Shown piece after piece: positions 4,306-55,148 of a DNA stretch of 64,000 bases (within the stretch, counting starts at the first letter, position 1; every line of letters starts with the position of its first letter). This DNA is from a bacterium (GTDB taxonomy: Bacteria > Patescibacteriota > Minisyncoccia > Phycocordibacterales > UBA5272). The stretch spans positions 182 to 64,181 of the forward strand of contig JAHFNB010000004.1 in assembly GCA_023267595.1 (NCBI GenBank). Direction: 5' to 3'. A program made the position numbers and the translations under genes. The notes beneath the pieces were generated by a model. That model did no database searches. It was not told where the DNA came from and worked only from the letters and a program-made list of their open reading frames with translations.

Positions 4306-5820
4306 TTACACTCCACGCAAAACGGTTATTTTCGCTCCAATCGCGTTTAATCTCTCGGCAATATCTGCATACCCACGTTTTATAGAATAGACGTTTCTGA
4401 GCAAGGATGTGCCTGATGCTCCAAGCATTGCAATCAGAATAATTGCCGTAGGACGAAGTGCAGGAGGGGATACAATTTGTGCACCGCGCAGTTTGGTCAC
4501 TCCTGTAACTAGTGCTCGGTGTGGGTCGAGTAATTTTATATCTGCACCGAGTCTGTTTAATTCCGTAAAATAAATAGCACGATTCTCCCATGTCCAATCA
4601 TGAATAAGTGTTTGACCAGAGGCTATGCAACTAATGGGGACAAAGAAAGGGAGATTATCATTATTAATACCGGGAAAAGGTTGTGCATGTATCTTATCTG
4701 TCGGAGCAATGATTTTTGAAGGAAATATAGTGATATCGACAAGTGAAGTTCTGCCATTTTTTGCAAAATATAATTTTGAAAGGGTAAAACGTAATCCCAT
4801 ACGTTTTAATTTTTCTAATTCGAGTGTAAGAAATGTAATTGGTGCACGTGTTATGGTGAGTTTGGATTTTGTCACGATTCCTGCGGCAATGAAGAACATA
4901 CTCTCTATTGGATCTTCACTATTGTAGTGTTCGATATTTACATCGATATCCTTTTTCCCATGTACTATAAGTGTTGTGGTACCAATACCTTCTATTACTA
5001 TACCAAAACTCTCTAGGAGGAAACATACATCTTGTACTTGATAATTTGGTGGTGCAAACATAATAGTTGTTTTCCCTTCAATACGTGATGCGGCCAGAAT
5101 TGCAGTAATCGCACCAGTGTCAGATGATTCGTAGAGTGGAATAGTCCCCGTATGTAGTTTTCTATATGAAATATCGTAGTGGTTTTCTTTTGTCTCGACA
5201 TTAATACCAAGGTATTCTAGAGCATATTTATGTGATGCAACCGTGCGTTCACCCATTTTACATCCACCAGAATGTGGAAGTGTAAAATGATTACCATAAT
5301 GAACAAATGCACCCGCAAAGGTAAATGATCTAATTTGTGTTGCAACGGCTTTGTCTATTTTTGAAAAAGAAAGTTTCTTAGGGGGTGTGATTTCAAGAGC
5401 AGTGTCATCATATATCCACTTTATCTTTACACCGACACTTTCGAGCAATTCTTTGTAGCGATGTACTTCTTCTATGTGGGGGATATCACGTAAAATAGTC
5501 GTGCCATTATTGACGAGTGCAGCAACCATCATATTGATGGCACCATTTTTTGAGGTATTTGTCTTTATACTACCTGAAAGTTTATGACCACCCTCTACTT
5601 TGAAATCAATAGCATTGTGAATACTCACTATGTTGTGTTTAAGGACGTCGCTCATCTTCATGAGTTGGTCTATAGTTACATTTTGATTTCCTGATTCTAT
5701 GCGCGCAACTGCAGACTGGGATGTTTTGAGAGACTTTGCAAATTCTCCTTGCGTCATTCCACGCTCTTCACGTAGTTTTTTTATGAAAAGTCCTATTTTT
5801 TCTTGATCATTAGGAGGCAT
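4306..5820 (-). CDS. murA: UDP-N-acetylglucosamine 1-carboxyvinyltransferase (MurA) fused in frame to an N-terminal XRE-family helix-turn-helix domain
   Basis: Residues 10-55 (IGLFIKKLREERGMTQGEFAKSLKTSQSAVARIESG) form an HTH_3 domain. The remainder aligns to MurA, including the catalytic loop GGCKMGERTV (E. coli GGCTIGARPVD) and the C-terminal RGYADIAERLNAIGAKI. Confidence 0.8.
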   Translation of the reverse strand: MPPNDQEKIGLFIKKLREERGMTQGEFAKSLKTSQSAVARIESGNQNVTIDQLMKMSDVLKHNIVSIHNAIDFKVEGGHKLSGSIKTNTSKNGAINMMVAALVNNGTTILRDIPHIEEVHRYKELLESVGVKIKWIYDDTALEITPPKKLSFSKIDKAVATQIRSFTFAGAFVHYGNHFTLPHSGGCKMGERTVASHKYALEYLGINVETKENHYDISYRKLHTGTIPLYESSDTGAITAILAASRIEGKTTIMFAPPNYQVQDVCFLLESFGIVIEGIGTTTLIVHGKKDIDVNIEHYNSEDPIESMFFIAAGIVTKSKLTITRAPITFLTLELEKLKRMGLRFTLSKLYFAKNGRTSLVDITIFPSKIIAPTDKIHAQPFPGINNDNLPFFVPISCIASGQTLIHDWTWENRAIYFTELNRLGADIKLLDPHRALVTGVTKLRGAQIVSPPALRPTAIILIAMLGASGTSLLRNVYSIKRGYADIAERLNAIGAKITVLRGV

Positions 5821-5913: not shown

Positions 5914-6540
5914 TTATACGGGAATCGCAGTTTTTTGTTTGAAGAGTGAAATATCAAGATTCCAGAGTTTGGCAGGGTTAAAGTAAGGATTAGGTATATC
6001 CAAAACTGATTTTTTCACAGATTTTAACCTTTCAAACTCTATATAACCCTCGACATCCGCAGAGTAGTAATCGCGGTATGCACTATATCCTTCGAGGTGA
6101 ATGGCAAATGTGCCATCTGTGTTGAGTACCATCTTGAGTGAGTGCGTTGCTTGGTTACTCATTTTATGCAGAGTAAGGAGAAGATTTCCCTTCTCACACG
6201 AGACGCCAAACTTCTGCTCATCGTAGTGGTATTCATTGATATCATGAGAACACATGTGCATTACGAGAAATGAAACAAGATATGCCATGCCATTCAGAGT
6301 TCCAAACTCGATATCTTCTGTTGGGAACAAGTAACGCACTGTATCCCCAATTAAGCGATCACAACACGTTTGCGCGAATATCGATGGGTCAAATCCGACT
6401 TTTAGACCTTCCCTTGTCGAGTTTTCAGAAAAGCCATCATTTTTTCCATTGAAGAAATTTCTAGCACCTTCGACAAACAACGGGAAAGAAAAATGTTGTA
6501 TTGTTCGCATTTTTACCAACTCATACCTTAGGTTTTTCAA
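5914..6540 (-). CDS. hypothetical protein (soluble, about 200 aa)
   Basis: ORF with no motif I can assign confidently. It lies between murA and mntH. Confidence 0.4.
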   Translation of the reverse strand: MKNLRYELVKMRTIQHFSFPLFVEGARNFFNGKNDGFSENSTREGLKVGFDPSIFAQTCCDRLIGDTVRYLFPTEDIEFGTLNGMAYLVSFLVMHMCSHDINEYHYDEQKFGVSCEKGNLLLTLHKMSNQATHSLKMVLNTDGTFAIHLEGYSAYRDYYSADVEGYIEFERLKSVKKSVLDIPNPYFNPAKLWNLDISLFKQKTAIPV

Positions 6541-6631: not shown

Positions 6632-7897
6632 TTAACGGAAGAGATTATAGAAGAAATAAATGGTAAGTGCAGACATGAGAATGGTAATAATGATTCCAAA
6701 GAAGTTTCCAAGTTTTCCGGTTGTTCTGTCACCCATAATCTTTTTGTTATTTCCTACAAGTAAAATGAGAATCATAAGTGGCGGCGCAAGTAATCCATTT
6801 AATATTGCTGCATAGTAGAGCATAGTCATTGGATTAATAGGGGAAAGATTCACAAGTATTCCTACAAGTGTTGCAACAATGATAACAAGGTAAAATCCAC
6901 GTGCTTGGGTAAATGTTTTACTCAATCCTTCACTCCAGTTTGCGGCTTCTGCTATTGCATAGGCTGCAGAACCTGCAAGGACGGGGACAGCAAGTAATCC
7001 AGTACCGACAATACCAAGCGTAAAGAGTAATGATGAGAAATCTCCTGCAAGCGGGCGTAATGATTCTGCAACTTGAGCAGCAGATGTCACTGAAGTAATG
7101 CCATTTGCACCGAGTGTGGCTGCGGCAGTGATAATAATAAAGAATGTAACGAGATTTGAAATAAACATTCCAAATGCAGTATCGGTACGCATTTGTGTAA
7201 TGTCTGCTCTGGTAATCTTTGGCACACCACGACCCATGGCGCGTATTTTGTGATGCATGAGTTCCTCTTCCACTTCTTCATCGGCTTGCCAGAAAAATAA
7301 ATAAGGAGAAATGGTTGTACCGAGCATTGCTGTTACATTCAAAATATACGCAGTATTCCATTCGAAATGAGGGATAAGCGTTGCATTTAAGATTAGCCCC
7401 CAATCTTGTTTAACGGCAAATGCTGCTATGATATATGCAAACACGGTGAGTGCAAGGTATTTTAAGAAAGAAACATATTTCGGATAGGGAATGAAAACTT
7501 CTGTAAGAATAGTGATAGCAGTAAGTATAAGAAGTGCAGGAACAAAAGAAATAGGAAGTACGAGTTGTGTTGCTGCAGCCATAGCCCCTAAGTCTGCACC
7601 GATATTTATGATATTAGTAATTGCGAGTAATGCAATCGCACCAAACAAAATAGGACGAGAATAGTGTTTCTTTAAAATACCTGCAAGACCAGTTCCTGTA
7701 ACTAATCCAATGCGTGCACACATCTCTTGAATGGAAACCATGAAAGGATATGAAAAGAGTGCAAGCCATAATTGTCCGTATCCAAACATAGCACCAGTTT
7801 GTGAGTATGTTGCAATACCTGAAGGATCGTCATCTGCAATACCAGTAATAACTCCCGGTCCTACTGCCTTTTTAAGGCGTTGTATTAATGATTTCAT
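6632..7897 (-). CDS. mntH: Nramp-family divalent metal (Mn2+/Fe2+) transporter
   Basis: Nramp signature GPGVITGIADDDPSGIATYSQTGA, about 11 TM helices. Confidence 0.9.
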   Translation of the reverse strand: MKSLIQRLKKAVGPGVITGIADDDPSGIATYSQTGAMFGYGQLWLALFSYPFMVSIQEMCARIGLVTGTGLAGILKKHYSRPILFGAIALLAITNIINIGADLGAMAAATQLVLPISFVPALLILTAITILTEVFIPYPKYVSFLKYLALTVFAYIIAAFAVKQDWGLILNATLIPHFEWNTAYILNVTAMLGTTISPYLFFWQADEEVEEELMHHKIRAMGRGVPKITRADITQMRTDTAFGMFISNLVTFFIIITAAATLGANGITSVTSAAQVAESLRPLAGDFSSLLFTLGIVGTGLLAVPVLAGSAAYAIAEAANWSEGLSKTFTQARGFYLVIIVATLVGILVNLSPINPMTMLYYAAILNGLLAPPLMILILLVGNNKKIMGDRTTGKLGNFFGIIITILMSALTIYFFYNLFR

Positions 7898-7964
7898 ATA
7901 GCCCTTAGTTTATAGTCAATAGTTATTAGTTACTAGGGGAATATAAACATATTAAATAAAAAAC

Positions 7965-7994
7965 TATATTTACTTGACTAGTCAAGTAAATATA
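7965..7994. promoter_or_regulatory. 30-bp perfect palindrome tatatttacttgact-agtcaagtaaatata; metalloregulator-type operator candidate about 70 bp upstream of mntH
   Basis: 15+15 perfect inverted repeat read directly. It overlaps the -35 of the consensus promoter listed next. Confidence 0.6.
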
Positions 7995-8003
7995 TGCTAT
8001 AAT
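7974..8003 (+). promoter_or_regulatory. consensus sigma70 promoter TTGACT-N18-TATAAT on the + strand; the -35 is embedded in the palindrome
   Basis: ttgact at 7974-7979 and tataat at 7998-8003. There is no + strand CDS downstream, only a structured 160-nt region and a terminator. Confidence 0.55.
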
Positions 8004-8009
8004 ATATTG

Positions 8010-8141
8010 ATTAGGATACATGATCAAAGTTTTAGAGATGATCATGGAAAGGGCTGAAGGAAAATCCTAGGTTGGATACCGTGCCTCCGGAGACCAACCC
8101 TATACTTTGCTGATGACAAAGTATCAGTACTCGAGTGCATC
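8010..8141 (+). ncRNA. candidate small structured RNA, or cis-leader if read from the other strand for mntH; identity unknown
   Basis: Bracketed by the consensus promoter and an intrinsic terminator. Contains an 8-bp inverted repeat catgatca...tgatcatg, stems aggttgg/ccaacct and agga-aaaa-tcct, and no ORF above 16 codons. Confidence 0.3.
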
Positions 8142-8169
8142 AAAAACCGAGATACGTCTCGGTTTTTTT
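8142..8169. terminator. bidirectional intrinsic terminator (A-run, ccgaga-tacg-tctcgg, T-run) shared by trxB (-) and the putative + strand small RNA
   Basis: Hairpin flanked by A6 on one side and T7 on the other. The trxB stop codon abuts it. Confidence 0.7.
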
Positions 8170-9109
8170 ACGCGTGAATATGAAGATAAATATCTTCTAG
8201 TGCGCGTACTGCATCTCCTGCTGCGATGTTATTTTGATGATATAACACATCTGTGCAATCTCCGGCTGCCCATATACCTTGTACAGACGTCTCTTGTGTA
8301 CGAGGGTTTATTACAATATTTTTCGTCTCAGTTACTTGTACAAGATTTTCTATAAAAGATGTGGCAGGGATTTGACCTATTTCTACAAAGACTGCAGAGG
8401 TTGGAAGAGTTATATCTTCTCCATCTTTTGTATAGGTAATTGATTCGACGAATTTACTTCCTGTAATTGATTTTGGAATTGCACCAACGATAAGTTTAAA
8501 ATGTTCCTTTATTTTTAATTTTTCTATAGTGATTGCATCTGCTCTTGGTTCACTTCGTGAAAGAAGTGTTACTGATTTACAATAGGCGAGTAATTGTGCA
8601 GCAGATTCAAATCCTGCATTTCCTCCACCAACAACTACAACATCCATTCCTGAAAAGAGTGGTCCATCACATGATGCACAATAGGTGATACCTTTATTCT
8701 CAAATTCTTCTGCACCAGTGACCTCTAATTTTCTGCGAGATGAACCTGCTGCGATGAGAATAGTTTTTGATTTCTGCTCTCCTTTATCTGTGGTTATTGT
8801 AAAATCTCCATGTGATCCAGTGATAGACGAAACAGTTGCTTCTATAATGTGTAAAATATCACCTTTGTATTCTTCGACGTGTGATTTAAGGGATTCTGCA
8901 AGTTTTGCACCACTGATATGTGGGGTTCCTATCCAGTTTTGGATATCATCAGACACGATTGATTGTCCTCCCCATTCTTTTACGATAAGAAGTGTTTTTA
9001 GTTGTTTACGCGCAGCATATACTGCAGCAGCACTTCCTGCAGGACCACCTCCTACGATTATTAAATCGTAGATAGGTGAGAGGTTAGAGGTGGTAGGTAA
9101 AAGAGACAT
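8168..9109 (-). CDS. trxB: thioredoxin-disulfide reductase
   Basis: FAD motif IVGGGPAGSAAAVYAA, redox-active CASCDG, and the NAD(P) motif GGGNAGFE. Confidence 0.9.
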   Translation of the reverse strand: MSLLPTTSNLSPIYDLIIVGGGPAGSAAAVYAARKQLKTLLIVKEWGGQSIVSDDIQNWIGTPHISGAKLAESLKSHVEEYKGDILHIIEATVSSITGSHGDFTITTDKGEQKSKTILIAAGSSRRKLEVTGAEEFENKGITYCASCDGPLFSGMDVVVVGGGNAGFESAAQLLAYCKSVTLLSRSEPRADAITIEKLKIKEHFKLIVGAIPKSITGSKFVESITYTKDGEDITLPTSAVFVEIGQIPATSFIENLVQVTETKNIVINPRTQETSVQGIWAAGDCTDVLYHQNNIAAGDAVRALEDIYLHIHA

Positions 9110-9163: not shown

Positions 9164-9194
9164 TTTGACAAGTGTATATTTTAATGTAGTATAA
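9164..9194 (+). promoter_or_regulatory. promoter TTGACA-N16-TAGTAT followed by an AAGGAG Shine-Dalgarno 8 nt before the ATG of the 9227 gene
   Basis: Read directly. This is one of the few clear SD sequences in the window. Confidence 0.5.
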
Positions 9195-9226
9195 AAATTG
9201 GCTATTTTGCCAAGAAAGGAGTTCTT

Positions 9227-9616
9227 TTGATGAATCAAAGTACTACATTGTCATTTGGGGAAATTTTCGATTTATATCAAAAAGGGGCCCTTACGATTGA
9301 GCGAAGAAGACCGATTTTGAGATTACGGATTGTAAATAATCACTTGTACTCTCTATCTCAAAAAGGTCTAGTCTATCGAGTCAAACATTTTTCTCGTTGG
9401 CAAAAACTTTCCTCAATTTCAGGTGCCTACCTAGTAGGAAATGAGGATCTTCGTATTAGGTTCTGTGATCACTCCGTCCGTACGATTGGTAACACTAGAA
9501 GTCAGTATTCTGTTCTTCTTGCAAAAAATATAAAGAATCCTATTTCTTATCGAGTTCCAATTCAATCAAGGTGTGATACAGAAGTTTATTATCCCCCATT
9601 GAATCCAATAGTTTAA
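9227..9616 (+). CDS. hypothetical protein (129 aa)
   Basis: Good promoter and SD but no recognisable motif. Confidence 0.5.
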   Translation: MMNQSTTLSFGEIFDLYQKGALTIERRRPILRLRIVNNHLYSLSQKGLVYRVKHFSRWQKLSSISGAYLVGNEDLRIRFCDHSVRTIGNTRSQYSVLLAKNIKNPISYRVPIQSRCDTEVYYPPLNPIV

Positions 9617-9738
9617 GTATGTATAACACCGTCTTACATATAATGTACCTATTTATATTATAGGATATATTCATTTCAGTATTGATTGAAATGAATATAT
9701 GTAAATTCTTAATTTACATATATTATAGAAAGGCGGTT

Positions 9739-16204: not shown

Positions 16205-16245
16205 ATAGTTTAGAAGATAGATTTTTTGATGTTAAGAGAAAATGA

Positions 16246-16272
16246 AATGGCGACTGCGTAGCAGTCGCCATT
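16246..16272. terminator. bidirectional terminator atggcgactgc-gta-gcagtcgccat between convergent pth and rpsA
   Basis: 11-bp perfect stem read in sequence. Confidence 0.65.
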
Positions 16273-16295
16273 TCTATCCTCTAACTTTTAGTGTG

Positions 16296-21162: not shown

Positions 21163-21222
21163 AACATTAAAGAAATTGTATATCCACTGTAGTCTGTTAA
21201 CTCTAGACTGTATACTATCTAC

Positions 21223-21744: not shown

Positions 21745-21760
21745 GAATTAGAAAATACAA

Positions 21761-21790
21761 AGAGCAACCACGAAGTGGTTGCTCTTTGTA
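21761..21790 (+). terminator. intrinsic terminator agagcaaccac-gaa-gtggttgctct followed by T-rich sequence, then a short ctaccac x3 microrepeat
   Basis: 11-bp perfect stem. Confidence 0.6.
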
Positions 21791-21832
21791 TCCACTACCA
21801 CCTACCACCTACCACCTGTATACTAGTCTTAT

Positions 21833-25333: not shown

Positions 25334-25353
25334 TTTCTAGAGTTATAGAAAAC

Positions 25354-25384
25354 AAAACCTGCACATGTGCAGGTTTTGTTTTGG
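25354..25384 (+). terminator. strong intrinsic terminator aaaacctgcaca-tgtgcaggtttt followed by a T-run
   Basis: Perfect palindrome followed by ttttgtttt. Confidence 0.75.
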
Positions 25385-27212: not shown

Positions 27213-27222
27213 TAAAATCTAC

Positions 27223-27255
27223 AAAAAATTGCTATTCAAAATAGCAATTTTTTGT
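27223..27255 (+). terminator. intrinsic terminator aattgctatt-caa-aatagcaatt plus T6
   Basis: 10-bp perfect stem followed by tttttt. Confidence 0.7.
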
Positions 27256-27421: not shown

Positions 27422-27462
27422 CAATTCAAAACACACAGATTCTTTCTGTGTGTTTTGAATTG
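27422..27462 (+). terminator. 17-bp perfect hairpin caattcaaaacacacag-attcttt-ctgtgtgttttgaattg immediately 3' of tRNA-Trp
   Basis: Perfect inverted repeat read directly. Confidence 0.6.
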
Positions 27463-27607: not shown

Positions 27608-27653
27608 TTCTTTTCCACTACTGACTGATAACTGTTCACTGTATACTACATAT

Positions 27654-28730
27654 ATGGATAAGAAACTCCGTGTAGCAATCAATGGATTTGGGCGCATTGG
27701 TCGTGCGTTTTTTAAAGTAGCGCTTGCACATCCAGACATTGAGATTGTCGCAGTGAATGACTTGGGAGACGTACATAATCTCGCATATCTTCTTCAGTAC
27801 GATACTGTATATCGCGTGTCTTCATTTGATGTGCACGCAGAGATACATGAGGAAAGTAAAGAGCAATATCTTGTTATCGAAGGTGATATAGATATGAAAG
27901 TAAAAGTGGTACAGGAAAAAGACCCTAACTTGCTTCCGTGGAAGAGTATGGAAATTGATGTCGTAGTAGAATCAACAGGACTTTTTACAACATATGATAA
28001 AGCACAGGCTCATATCACTGCAGGAGCAAAACATGTGGTAATCTCAGCGCCTGCAAAAGACGGAGTAGATACAACAGTACTTGGAGAGACCATTTTAATG
28101 GGGGTAAATGAAGAAAAGTTTGGTACATGTACTATAACATCAAATGCATCATGTACCACGAATGCCTCATCCCCACTTATTGCAATACTTGATGAGACAT
28201 TAGGTATTGAAAAAGCAATTTTAAATACAGTACACGCGTATACCGCATCTCAAAGTATTGTAGACGGACCAAATAAAAAAGATTTTCGTGAAGGTAGGGC
28301 TGCTGCACAAAATATTGTCCCATCATCAACTGGTGCAGCAATCGCAGTGACAAAAGCATTTACAAAACTAACGGGACTATTTGATGGAATATCTATGCGC
28401 GTACCAGTTCCTGCAGGTTCAATCGTGGATGTTACCTTTATTTCAAAAAAAGAAACGACTGTGGAAGAAGTAAATAAGATTCTCACAGAAGCCTCACGTA
28501 TAAATAGATGGAAAGATATTTTTACAGTTACAGAAGAAGAATTAGTATCTAGTGATATCTTAGGACTTCCGTTTGCATCTATTGCAGATCTCAAAATGAC
28601 GCGTGTAGTAGGGGGAAATTTGGTGAAAGTACTGGCGTGGTATGATAATGAAATGGGGTATACTCACACACTAGTCGCACACGTTTTAAAAGCAGGAAAG
28701 ACAATACAGACAGTAGACAGTAGACTGTAG
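27654..28730 (+). CDS. gap: glyceraldehyde-3-phosphate dehydrogenase
   Basis: NGFGRIGR NAD motif and active-site SNASCTTN. Internal ATG chosen; the ORF-track start at 27510 reads through tRNA-derived repeats. Confidence 0.9.
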   Translation: MDKKLRVAINGFGRIGRAFFKVALAHPDIEIVAVNDLGDVHNLAYLLQYDTVYRVSSFDVHAEIHEESKEQYLVIEGDIDMKVKVVQEKDPNLLPWKSMEIDVVVESTGLFTTYDKAQAHITAGAKHVVISAPAKDGVDTTVLGETILMGVNEEKFGTCTITSNASCTTNASSPLIAILDETLGIEKAILNTVHAYTASQSIVDGPNKKDFREGRAAAQNIVPSSTGAAIAVTKAFTKLTGLFDGISMRVPVPAGSIVDVTFISKKETTVEEVNKILTEASRINRWKDIFTVTEEELVSSDILGLPFASIADLKMTRVVGGNLVKVLAWYDNEMGYTHTLVAHVLKAGKTIQTVDSRL

Positions 28731-28750
28731 ACAACAGAGAATACAAGATT

Positions 28751-29107
28751 ATGTCCTCATACAAAGATTTAATTGTTTGGCAAAAATCTTATAAACTTTC
28801 GCTTTTGATTTATTCAATTACCAAAAAATTTCCTAAAGAAGAAATGTTTGGATTAGTTTCTCAAATGCGCCGAGCAAGTGTATCTATTCCAAGTAATATA
28901 GCAGAAGGTAATAATAGGTTTGGTAAAAAAGACAATGCACAATTTCTTAGAATTGCTTATGGCTCTGCATCTGAACTTGAAACACAGTTATCAATTTCTA
29001 AAGATTTGAAGTTTACTTCAGATAAGGAGTATACTGAAGCATCAGGATTACTTTCTGAAATCATGAAAATGCTCTACACATTATTAGTTCGGGTCTCTAA
29101 TGTCTAA
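28751..29107 (+). CDS. four-helix-bundle protein (TIGR02436 / 23S rRNA intervening-sequence protein family)
   Basis: DLIVWQKSYKL...FPKEEMFGLVSQMRRASVSIPSNIAEGNNR matches the family signature. Confidence 0.75.
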   Translation: MSSYKDLIVWQKSYKLSLLIYSITKKFPKEEMFGLVSQMRRASVSIPSNIAEGNNRFGKKDNAQFLRIAYGSASELETQLSISKDLKFTSDKEYTEASGLLSEIMKMLYTLLVRVSNV

Positions 29108-29113
29108 TGTCTT

Positions 29114-29575
29114 ATGTCTAAAGTCTATTTGGCTACTGATCACGCAGGATTTGAGTATAAGGAAGAAATAAAAAGTTACCTAGAAGAACACAACCATGAA
29201 GTTTATGATTGTGGAGCGCTTACCCTTGAGACAGGAGATGATTATCCAGAAATTATTGCGCGTGCTGCAGAAAAAGTACAAGATGATGCCAAGCATGATC
29301 CATCTATGGCAGTAATCTTCGGAGGGTCAGGAGTAGGAGAAGCAATTGTTGCTAATCGATTTCCACATGTACGAGCAGTTACCTTTTCTGGTGGTCCTCT
29401 TGATGTTATAAAAAAATCACGTGAAGATAATGATACGAATGTAATTTCAATTGGAGTGAGATTTGTGACAATTAATGAAGCAAAACAAGCAATTGATTTA
29501 TTTTTGGCGACACCTTTTTCACATCTTGAGCGTCATGCAGATAGAATTATTCAGATAGAAGAAGTTACACAATAA
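29114..29575 (+). CDS. rpiB: ribose-5-phosphate isomerase B (RpiB/LacA/LacB family)
   Basis: LATDHAGFEYK N-terminus, DCG, GGSGVGEAIVANR and the C-terminal ATPFS motif. Confidence 0.8.
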   Translation: MSKVYLATDHAGFEYKEEIKSYLEEHNHEVYDCGALTLETGDDYPEIIARAAEKVQDDAKHDPSMAVIFGGSGVGEAIVANRFPHVRAVTFSGGPLDVIKKSREDNDTNVISIGVRFVTINEAKQAIDLFLATPFSHLERHADRIIQIEEVTQ

Positions 29576-53889: not shown

Positions 53890-55116
53890 TTAGCGTGTAT
53901 CTCTCATCGGCAATATATAGTACACACTTACAAGAAGTGCACATCCTAAGATTACAAAAATAAGTTGTGGTCTTTCAACAACAAGTGGTGCTATAGCAAA
54001 TCCAACAGTTCCTACAATAACAGTTCCCATGACTTGTGTTCCAGTAAACAGTGCAGTGAGTGATGCATCTTCTGGACCAATTTTTTTAAAGTAATAAGTA
54101 AATGCCATTGTTTCTACACAGGCTGCTCCAATACGAGAAGCAATAAAGATAAATACCCATGTAAGCGGATTTGAACTTGTCACAATGACACATAAAAATA
54201 CAGTGATTGCAAGAATAAGTAGTCCTCCTATCATAAGTTCTTTTTCTCCAAAGCGACTATCTGCTAGATAACCAAGTTCATAAGGAAGTACAACAAGGGG
54301 GATAAGTGCAAGAGGTAATATGTAGGTAAGATATGTTGTAAGAGAAATACCTATAGTTCCTAAATACAATGGAGAATAGATGATCATAACACCATAGAAA
54401 CAATTTACGAGAAGTGATGCAATCAGTGCTGCGCGAAGATTTTTATTTTTCCACGCAAGAGATAATGATTGGAGCATATCTGTACTGTGATATGCAGGAT
54501 CTTTAATATGAGAAAGATATTTATGAAGAAAGAATAGAAAAGGTACAAGCATTACTGCGGAAGTTATGTAGAGTATTTCAAAGGAAGCATGAGAGATGAT
54601 AGTTCCTCCAATAAGTGGTGATATGAGAATAGCAACATTTAAAAGTGCAAGGAATAATCCACGAATACTCCCTGTATCTGCATATTTACTAAAACTCTCA
54701 ATAAGAACATTTAAACATACATAAAGTAGTGCTTGGAGAATGAAATGTGCAATAAACATTAATCCTAAGATATAGACGTTATGAGTGAGGGCAAAAATTA
54801 CGGTGACAATAATTTCTGCAATAGTTAGTCCAAAGGTGAATGAATAGGTATGGAACTTTCTAATATGTTTTGAGACAGAAAGTGCAGCAATCAATGCTCC
54901 TGTACTCCCAAGGAGATAAAGAACACTTACAAATGATGTGTCAAAAAATTCATGGAGATACGTTGATGATGCGTACAGTGGAATACCATAGTGAAGTGCA
55001 TACAATATGGTAAGCATATAAGTAACAACGAGAAGTTTGTTACGAGTGATGGTATGCATGGGTATAAGTATACAGTGAGCAGTGAGCAGTAGCCAGTGGA
55101 ACAAAATCGAAACCAA
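53890..55116 (-). CDS. MFS transporter (12 TM)
   Basis: Twelve hydrophobic helices with a central loop. Confidence 0.6.
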   Translation of the reverse strand: MVSILFHWLLLTAHCILIPMHTITRNKLLVVTYMLTILYALHYGIPLYASSTYLHEFFDTSFVSVLYLLGSTGALIAALSVSKHIRKFHTYSFTFGLTIAEIIVTVIFALTHNVYILGLMFIAHFILQALLYVCLNVLIESFSKYADTGSIRGLFLALLNVAILISPLIGGTIISHASFEILYITSAVMLVPFLFFLHKYLSHIKDPAYHSTDMLQSLSLAWKNKNLRAALIASLLVNCFYGVMIIYSPLYLGTIGISLTTYLTYILPLALIPLVVLPYELGYLADSRFGEKELMIGGLLILAITVFLCVIVTSSNPLTWVFIFIASRIGAACVETMAFTYYFKKIGPEDASLTALFTGTQVMGTVIVGTVGFAIAPLVVERPQLIFVILGCALLVSVYYILPMRDTR

Positions 55117-55148
55117 AGGTTTCGATTTTGTTTACAGTACTACGTATT

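Follow-up and report, generated by a model that had tools for sequence, protein, structure and literature searches.

What does a long perfect palindrome do beside a metal transporter gene? The question is raised by 64,000 nucleotides of bacterial DNA (Patescibacteriota; Minisyncoccia; Phycocordibacterales; UBA5272; GenBank assembly GCA_023267595.1, contig JAHFNB010000004.1, positions 182 to 64,181 of the forward strand), hereafter the window, in which a 30-bp palindrome lies upstream of a gene for an Nramp-family divalent metal transporter ('mntH'). A first-pass annotation of this DNA had taken the palindrome for the operator of a dimeric metalloregulator. We found that the palindrome is non-random, that it is part of a strongly constrained, lineage-restricted non-coding cassette, and that it forms the promoter of this cassette. 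A link between the palindrome and metal regulation of mntH was not supported. The parts of the palindrome and cassette are listed below in window coordinates; names beginning with L denote loci collected for comparison, L003 being one from the same sample.

7954-7964, + strand: AAATAAAAAAC, at the position of an UP element (-56 to -46), identical in L003
7964-7954, - strand: GUUUUUUAUUU, a U-tract immediately after the hairpin, picked up by a relaxed hairpin-plus-T-tail scan
7965-7994: 30-bp perfect palindrome, predicted to fold as - strand RNA into a 13-bp stem with a 4-nt loop
7965-7979: left arm, TATATTTACTTGACT
7980-7994: right arm, AGTCAAGTAAATATA
7974-7979, + strand: -35 element TTGACT, formed by the six left-arm bases nearest the dyad centre, kept in L003
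7995-8003, + strand: extended -10 element TGcTATAAT (TG at 7995-7996, TATAAT at 7998-8003), TGtTATAAT in L003
7999-8004, - strand: mirror -10 element TATTAT, with TTGATC at 8027-8022 and a 17-nt spacer (9/12), predicted divergent start at ~7992
8010-8169, + strand (putative): predicted structured non-coding RNA of ~160 nt, which folds and holds no conserved open reading frame (ORF)
8142-8169: terminator hairpin AAAAACCGAGA-tacg-TCTCGGTTTTT followed by T7, the T7 (8163-8169) overlapping the stop codon of a trxB-like gene

The palindrome reads tatatttacttgact followed by agtcaagtaaatata (half-site given as ATATTTACTTGACT), with arms of 15+15 bp, zero spacer and zero mismatch, exactly as first described. 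Of the interval originally assigned to it, 7965-8003, only 7965-7994 is palindrome; 8003 is the last base of the -10 hexamer. The claim that such a palindrome is rare stood up well. In 200 dinucleotide-preserving shuffles of the window, the longest zero-spacer arm averaged 8.2 bp and never exceeded 11, and analytically only 1.6e-4 zero-spacer palindromes with arms of at least 15 are expected per window. Thus, the palindrome is not a product of chance. An identical sequence was found in three assemblies of the window's lineage, which come from at least two samples. The edge of the palindrome is 67 nt from the Nramp ATG, in agreement with the earlier estimate of about 70 bp, and the Nramp gene lies, as stated, on the opposite (-) strand.

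The promoter, TTGACT-18-TGcTATAAT, is of the sigma-70 type and matches the consensus at 11/12 positions plus the TG. It is the sole TTGAC-N16-19-TATAAT site (at least 5/6 matches to the last hexamer) on both strands of the 64 kb. The -35 element, the 18-nt length of the spacer and TGn-TATAAT are all retained in L003. These data bear out the first-pass annotation on two counts, namely that the palindrome is fused to a consensus promoter (TTGACT-N18-TATAAT) whose -35 it overlaps, and that a + strand transcript is implicated, which is also what the palindrome affects most directly. The promoter under the palindrome reads the + strand, away from Nramp. We infer a transcription start near 8010.

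The mirror -10 on the - strand gives a predicted divergent start that coincides with the right edge of the palindrome. A symmetric -10 with -11A and -7T reciprocally paired and starts 18 bp apart is the commonest geometry of bidirectional promoters, as summarized in PMC10268837. The locus resembles the bidirectional promoters of Warman et al. 2021 (via PMC10268837) in its top-strand TATAAT and bottom-strand TATTAT, its paired -11A/-7T and its predicted starts at 8010 and 7992. In the model as that summary gives it, however, the symmetry resides in the -10, whereas here a long dyad lies upstream over the -35, which that model does not explain, and the dyad would sit at the very start of the divergent transcript. 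A mirror-image divergent promoter built on the bottom-strand TTGACT was rejected, since only TTTTTA, and no -10, is found at 16-19 nt. Also rejected was a dif/Xer-like or recombinase core site, the dyad having no asymmetric spacer and the coarse GC-skew showing no clear polarity switch here.

The cassette, ~215 bp long (~7954-8169), separates the trxB-like stop codon from the upstream region of Nramp and contains the consensus sigma-70-type promoter, a structured region of ~160 nt and a hairpin plus T7. We infer that an RNA of ~160 nt is made from the + strand, from about 8010. Folding predicted the hairpins CAUGAUC...GAUCAUG, GGUUGG-AUA-CCG-UGCCUC-CGG-AGA-CCAACC and ACUUUG...CAAAGU. The last of these is AUCUUG/CAAGAU in L003 instead of ACUUUG/CAAAGU, a change of two compensatory pairs in one stem and between two sequences only. 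The closing hairpin (8142-8169) could act in both directions, with the better U-tract on the + strand; in L003, a 4-nt insertion parts its stem from the U-run on the - strand only. The terminator scan used here overlooked it, since the T-run is taken up into the maximal stem.

No conserved ORF was found on either strand of the cassette. Single-base insertions and deletions between the window and L003 shift the frame of every short ORF on both strands, and the region is thus non-coding. A candidate small peptide gene (16 amino acids, MIKVLEMIMERAEGKS) was rejected for the same reason, a 1-nt indel shifting its frame in L003. Rfam 15 contained no matching family at gathering thresholds, and matches at E <= 10 were due to chance or to terminators only; no known riboswitch model in Rfam fits either strand. 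The predicted RNA did not pair better with the Nramp leader than shuffled sequences did. Stand-alone small-RNA genes of bacteria combine a sigma-70 promoter, a structured RNA of 100-200 nt and an intrinsic terminator. Like them, the cassette has complete start and stop signals and no coding potential, and it is far better conserved than the synonymous sites nearby; compensatory stem changes are seen as well, in one stem and two sequences. Unlike described genes of this kind, it belongs to no Rfam family, has no known target or partner, and occurs in only two uncultured Paceibacterota-like genomes. We tentatively interpret the palindrome as the upstream half of a promoter that belongs to a small non-coding RNA gene restricted to this lineage, and not as an element of the Nramp promoter.

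We compared the locus with its relatives. Contigs from assembly ERZ27279942 and from run SRR14366791 encode an identical Nramp protein. Among its named homologues, the closest occur in Candidatus Paceibacterota and Nomurabacteria metagenome-assembled genomes, those of Paceibacterota being labelled divalent metal cation transporter. The gene order FtsA-FtsZ-trxB-like-(variable)-Nramp-(orphan)-HTH_3::MurA-like is common to the window and its relatives. In L003, where Nramp is 88% identical, the cassette is likewise beside Nramp, and an ABC transporter gene replaces the trxB-like gene upstream. The 270-nt intergenic region is ~90% identical between the two genomes, as opposed to 45% for the 4-fold sites of Nramp, 49% for its third codon positions and 47% for its first 30 codons. 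This difference from the 4-fold sites places the whole spacer under strong constraint. A sharply bounded recent exchange is a less likely alternative, given the compensatory stem changes. The L003 palindrome differs from that of the window by the loss of 7965, by C>A at 7983 and by T>C at 7987; these three departures from the perfect dyad amount to about the divergence of the remaining cassette, and the right arm, a promoter spacer, keeps 13/15 bases.

Between the ABC transporter stop codon and the cassette, L003 contains ~50 nt (2672-2722) resembling the 3' end of the trxB-like gene, although its actual trxB-like gene is 1.9 kb upstream. This configuration suggests that the ABC gene was inserted into a window-like trxB-cassette-Nramp arrangement with target duplication.

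Neither the cassette nor the palindrome was found at six orthologous Nramp loci (L005, L086, L087, L088, L117 and L118). In L087 and L088, the trxB-like stop codon is only ~55 nt from the Nramp ATG; the other four have different inserts (TfoX, ABC transporter or unrelated spacers) with no trace of the RNA or palindrome. Another locus, L116 (87% identical), has no dyad in the 90 nt upstream of Nramp, where its sequence ends. Searches of all collected loci with the cassette (blastn and nhmmer) retrieved only the window, L001, L002 and L003. An exact 18-mer of the RNA core (GGATACCGTGCCTCCGGA) gave 23 matches in JGI metagenomes and 3 in IMG/VR, all of them chance matches in high-GC coding DNA, so that this exact-core search added no RNA homologues from either collection. 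Only AT-rich noise was retrieved from INPHARED phages. By this distribution, the cassette appears to be a recent lineage-specific insertion, confined among the reachable sequences to two genomes.

The Nramp gene has a start-proximal, promoter-like element of its own. The features on this side of the cassette, and the gene on the other side, are as follows.

6632-7897, - strand: Nramp-family divalent metal transporter gene ('mntH'; Pfam PF01566, E = 8e-79)
7898-7940, - strand: Nramp upstream element, period-7 repeats AGTAACT AATAACT ATTGACT ATAAACT, then a -10-like TAAACT
8168-9109, - strand: thioredoxin-reductase-like gene (Pyr_redox_2, trxB-like), whose stop codon abuts the cassette

The -10-like TAAACT (7912-7907) is located 9 nt before the Nramp ATG, and the centre of the palindrome is ~80 bp further upstream. 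The period-7 array, with varying filler bases, is kept in L003, L004, L088 and L116, with or without the palindrome. The palindrome thus appears to lie outside the Nramp core promoter. This arrangement seems to be typical of the window. Of 103 TA[TC]ACT sites, 21 stand 4-11 nt ahead of the opening ATG of an ORF with 60 codons or more, usually after TG or TGn; for control hexamers of equal composition, the figure is 0-5 of 53-80. Few genes in the window have Shine-Dalgarno sequences. From this enrichment and the scarcity of Shine-Dalgarno sites, most genes of the window appear to have their -10 immediately before the start codon and to be leaderless or near-leaderless, and Nramp conforms to this pattern. 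Examples of TG(n)TATACT/TACACT are found at 21211, 27642, 30277, 40270, 50591 and 62262 on the + strand and at 55072, 9123, 5832, 4300 and 62214 on the - strand. The arrangement, with its extended -10 promoters, looks as if it extended to the whole genome. A quick literature search found no description of the TATACT-before-ATG arrangement in this clade.

Short tandem arrays with a strict 7-nt period lie directly upstream of or across start codons, including that of Nramp (7906-7936, 21795-21817, 28708-28733, 29096-29127, 55073-55090 and 27617-27647). They include (N4-ACT)x4-5, (CTACCAC)x3.3, (AGACAGT)x3.7 and (TCTAATG)x4.6, and usually run into a TATACT element. Over 2 Mb on both strands, N4-ACT runs of at least four units were found only in the window, L001-L004, L086, L088 and L116, where chance would give ~0.2. 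Such arrays are possibly an upstream promoter element or the site of a periodic RNA- or DNA-binding protein. An orphan ORF at 9227-9616 departs from its neighbours: it is among the few genes with both a canonical -35, TTGACA, and a strong Shine-Dalgarno site, AAAGGAG (9166-9230), and may be foreign DNA.

If the promoter serves the + strand, why is it so symmetric? The - strand offers a possible answer, to which we give somewhat less than an even chance: embedded in the promoter of the small RNA, the palindrome may act as a terminator of leftward transcription. Its - strand transcript is predicted to fold with -13.5 kcal/mol (z = -5.0) and runs directly into GUUUUUUAUUU (G-U6-A-U3), so that the stem-loop and the immediate U-tract of an intrinsic terminator are both found on this strand. 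Owing to two G-U wobbles, 12 contiguous pairs survive on the - strand of L003 (-8.9 kcal/mol), as does the U-tract, while the + strand falls to -5.3 kcal/mol. All other perfect inverted repeats of the window with arms of at least 14 (8/8) are intergenic and directly follow the 3' end of a gene, and the other terminator-like hairpins are similarly AT-rich. One of the repeats, a zero-spacer palindrome at 25349-25382, ends 14 nt before the -10 of the next gene.

Long perfect hairpins with arms of 14-18 nt follow gene 3' ends at 27422-27462, 25349-25382, 21755-21791, 27221-27255, 55100-55132, 9665-9724 and 16244-16274. Often AT-rich, and in several cases with an A-run and a T-run inside the stem, these hairpins look like the terminators that this genome uses as standard. 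The palindrome resembles the intrinsic terminators of the window in its perfect stem-loop and immediate U-tract on the - strand, the hairpins at 27221, 9694 and 9665 in stem length (13-15 bp) and low G+C, and the palindrome at 25349-25382 in its zero spacer and its place just upstream of the next promoter. It differs from the gene-end terminators in its distance of 174 nt from the nearest - strand gene upstream, a further terminator lying in the gap, and in being superimposed on the -35 and spacer of a promoter on the other strand. Its stem has fewer G-C pairs than those of textbook terminators.

The cassette would then work as follows. RNA polymerase would start near 8010 and make the ~160-nt + strand RNA. 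The dyad symmetry would be selected at the RNA level on the opposite strand, which is the least certain step. Leftward transcripts could arise by read-through from the trxB-like gene past the first hairpin (8142-8169) or by divergent initiation at ~7992 from the symmetric -10. Such an RNA would fold into a hairpin of 13-15 bp followed by GUUUUUUAUUU, and terminate. Starting at the palindrome's right edge, the divergent transcript would stop ~40 nt later, short of the Nramp promoter, so that termination would keep leftward transcription out of the ATG-proximal promoter of Nramp. This would matter because genes here largely have no Shine-Dalgarno sequence and apparently start at or next to the ATG. 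The cassette would be bounded by two outward-facing terminators, one of them superimposed on the small-RNA promoter. Terminator-like elements ahead of Nramp seem to recur across lineages with different sequences. In L087 (3445-3500), an unrelated sense-strand hairpin, AATTCTACTA..TAGTAGAATT then AUUUUUAU, lies just upstream of Nramp, and L118 (2895-2945) has another unrelated one, ACGAGAAttaTTCTCGT, in the same place, with U7 a few nucleotides downstream.

Several observations weigh against this picture. Both the start sites and the 3' ends were deduced from sequence, as was the strand assigned to the structured RNA, and there are only two independent cassette sequences. Neither folding energies nor G-U counts separate the strands, and the consensus fold of the core (window plus L003) is slightly better on the - strand (-32.5 vs -27.3 kcal/mol). 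The G-U evidence for the - strand consists of one substitution and one indel. As for the hairpin, a G+C-rich stem is absent: the AT-rich stem of the window has two or three G-C pairs, which is below the scan threshold, and that of L003 is weaker. A terminator (8142-8167) already lies between the trxB-like gene and the palindrome, and the need for a second one is only argued. Finally, the palindrome covers the -35 and spacer, where repressors classically bind, and a stretch of 25 identical bases is found on a phage contig in surroundings that resemble an operator.

The last point leads to a rival that we consider possible, though on balance unlikely: the palindrome is the operator of a dimeric helix-turn-helix (HTH) repressor other than a metalloregulator, which would bind from -45 to -16 and occlude the -35 and spacer. 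With a similarly modest chance, such a repressor would also block any divergent transcript from ~7992. Besides the classic position, the 13/15 bases of the right arm kept in L003, against a neutral identity of ~45%, are consistent with an operator. The strongest resemblance is to an IMG/VR contig, UViG_3300037827_000428, which has ATATTTACTTGACTAGTCAAGTAAA with 25/25 identical bases at the same distance to the -10. There, the sequence is in TTGACT-17-TATTAT between divergent genes (copies of the palindrome core are at L092:1079-1103 and L119:6574-6608), and two tandem copies of CTTGACTAGTCAAG lie just upstream of a Cro-like HTH gene. The shared features are the dyad symmetry over -35 and spacer, as in phage operators of the Cro/CI type, the 25 bases with equal spacing to the -10, and, on the phage side, the tandem core by the Cro-like gene. 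In contrast to Cro/CI operators, the window has a single copy and no adjacent HTH or repressor gene, and its dyad of 30 bp exceeds the 14-16-bp core shared with the phage. No second site was found in the 64 kb and no candidate regulator among the window ORFs scanned; two nearby orphan ORFs yielded no fold and no homologues. Both L003 substitutions hit the core of the right half-site (TTGACT to TTTACT). A 30-bp perfect dyad is also longer and cleaner than usual natural operators. The phage has no TATACT-ATG signature and uses Shine-Dalgarno sites, and it therefore probably infects a different host; its candidate regulators have no homologue in the window by tblastn. We regard the phage match as a lead, not a test. 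The ~36-kb phage contig has the palindrome core three times, the tandem pair being between an exonuclease/RecT module and the Cro-like gene, and relatives of its RecT, which number in the hundreds, come from environmental contigs of ~37 kb, none with a named host. The terminator and operator readings are not mutually exclusive.

The first-pass annotation had favoured a metalloregulator, and mntH is indeed repressed by MntR in model bacteria and by Fur too in E. coli (PMC11882963). An MntR/DtxR or Fur dimer operator giving metal-dependent control of Nramp is nevertheless very improbable here, its main support being a palindrome 67 nt from an Nramp gene, the one likeness to the boxes of these regulators upstream of mntH. 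The MntR dimer covers 18-20 bp, and its operators overlap the promoter of the regulated mntH or mntA (PMC11882963), from which the 30-bp size and the geometry seen here differ. The promoter covered by the palindrome is another one, which points away from Nramp and heads a small non-coding unit. The -10-like element of Nramp itself, ~80 bp from the dyad centre, is kept without the palindrome in L088 and L116. Six orthologous Nramp loci lack the palindrome, and the upstream dyads of L087 and L118 are unrelated in sequence. The further copies of the half-site that a regulon would call for were not in excess in the 64 kb, with 14 sites vs 16 expected for a 14-mer with up to 3 mismatches and 2 vs 4.9 for the 12-bp core with up to 2. 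To our knowledge, TTGACTAGTCAA is not contained in the consensus boxes of Fur, DtxR or MntR.

The statement made at the outset, that no regulator gene is visible in the window, held for the ORFs scanned. Pfam scans of 27 window ORFs, mostly small, revealed no stand-alone transcription factor, whether Fur, DtxR/MntR or another, and a single DNA-binding domain, an HTH_3 fused to a MurA-like enzyme (4306-5820). This fusion, of 504 amino acids on the - strand, joins an N-terminal XRE-type HTH_3 to a MurA/EPSP-synthase-like part, is also present in L003, L005, L086 and L087, and adjoins Nramp or lies one gene downstream of it in every examinable relative. The two orphan ORFs, 5914-6540 and 9227-9616, were rejected as candidate regulators, as they have no Pfam or PDB match, essentially no homologues and no usable structure model (AlphaFold predicted local distance difference test scores of 38-40). 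The first (- strand, ~200 amino acids), located between Nramp and the HTH-MurA gene, has no homologues in 5.8 billion proteins and an AlphaFold score of 38. Its counterparts are at L003:4435-5034 and L004:1458-2093, so that it is present only in genomes with the cassette (window and L003) or possibly with it (L004). It is 32% identical between the window and L003, vs 88% for Nramp.

Could the functional RNA instead be on the - strand? A cis-acting leader or attenuator upstream of Nramp, riboswitch-like or the partner of an antisense pair, strikes us as decidedly improbable, and we place equally little weight on the palindrome and U-tract being the terminator or expression platform of such a leader. 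More broadly, that the cassette is a new - strand cis-acting RNA control element for Nramp, whether a riboswitch-like attenuator or a sense/antisense partner, is improbable. The structured region of the window does fold better on this strand, as a compact multi-branch junction (-53.1 kcal/mol, z = -5.9, vs -46.6 and z = -2.95 on the + strand), the consensus fold agrees, and the order of structured domain, hairpin, U-tract and gene is typical of attenuators. The cassette also stays by Nramp in both genomes, whereas the gene upstream of it differs. However, no - strand promoter is evident upstream, the domain being immediately preceded there by a terminator hairpin. In L003, one strand folds as well as the other, neither strand is matched by a known riboswitch model, and complete, conserved start and stop signals are found on the + strand. 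A long leader would have no role at a gene with an ATG-proximal promoter-like element, in a genome where most genes look leaderless.

The symmetry might, alternatively, have no selected role, having arisen by inverted duplication or template switching when the cassette was born, or it might act through DNA structure only, as a cruciform giving a supercoiling-sensitive promoter. AT-rich spacerless perfect palindromes can extrude cruciforms, the cassette looks like a recent lineage-specific insertion, and the L003 departures from the dyad are about as frequent as cassette-wide divergence. We rate this explanation as improbable. The whole region evolves far slower than neutral sites, the three assemblies of the window's lineage are identical, and unselected perfect palindromes are expected to decay or to be deleted. 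A repeat of another kind is present at the edge of the window: a 145-nt unit is repeated 2.2 times at 32-344 with 100% identity, and includes the 3' part of a transfer RNA-like sequence (1-46) and an inverted repeat (38-82 and 183-227).

Of the known kinds, the element fits best as a repressor site or as a gene for a small RNA whose promoter contains a hairpin of the terminator type; the putative small RNA gene as such is previously undescribed. The locus also cautions that a long palindrome beside a transporter gene is not automatically a metalloregulator site. Should the - strand control element turn out to be true, metal uptake in this lineage of the Candidate Phyla Radiation (CPR) would be controlled by an RNA, in place of a protein metalloregulator. 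Almost nothing is known of how the uncultured CPR/Patescibacteria regulate their genes. Against this background, the locus provides a compact, strongly constrained and testable non-coding unit, with a consensus promoter, a candidate small RNA outside any described family and two flanking hairpins. If confirmed, the TG(n)TATACT pattern, the scarcity of Shine-Dalgarno sequences and the period-7 repeats upstream would mean that this lineage expresses most of its genes from leaderless or near-leaderless mRNAs, which would make intergenic terminators functionally important.

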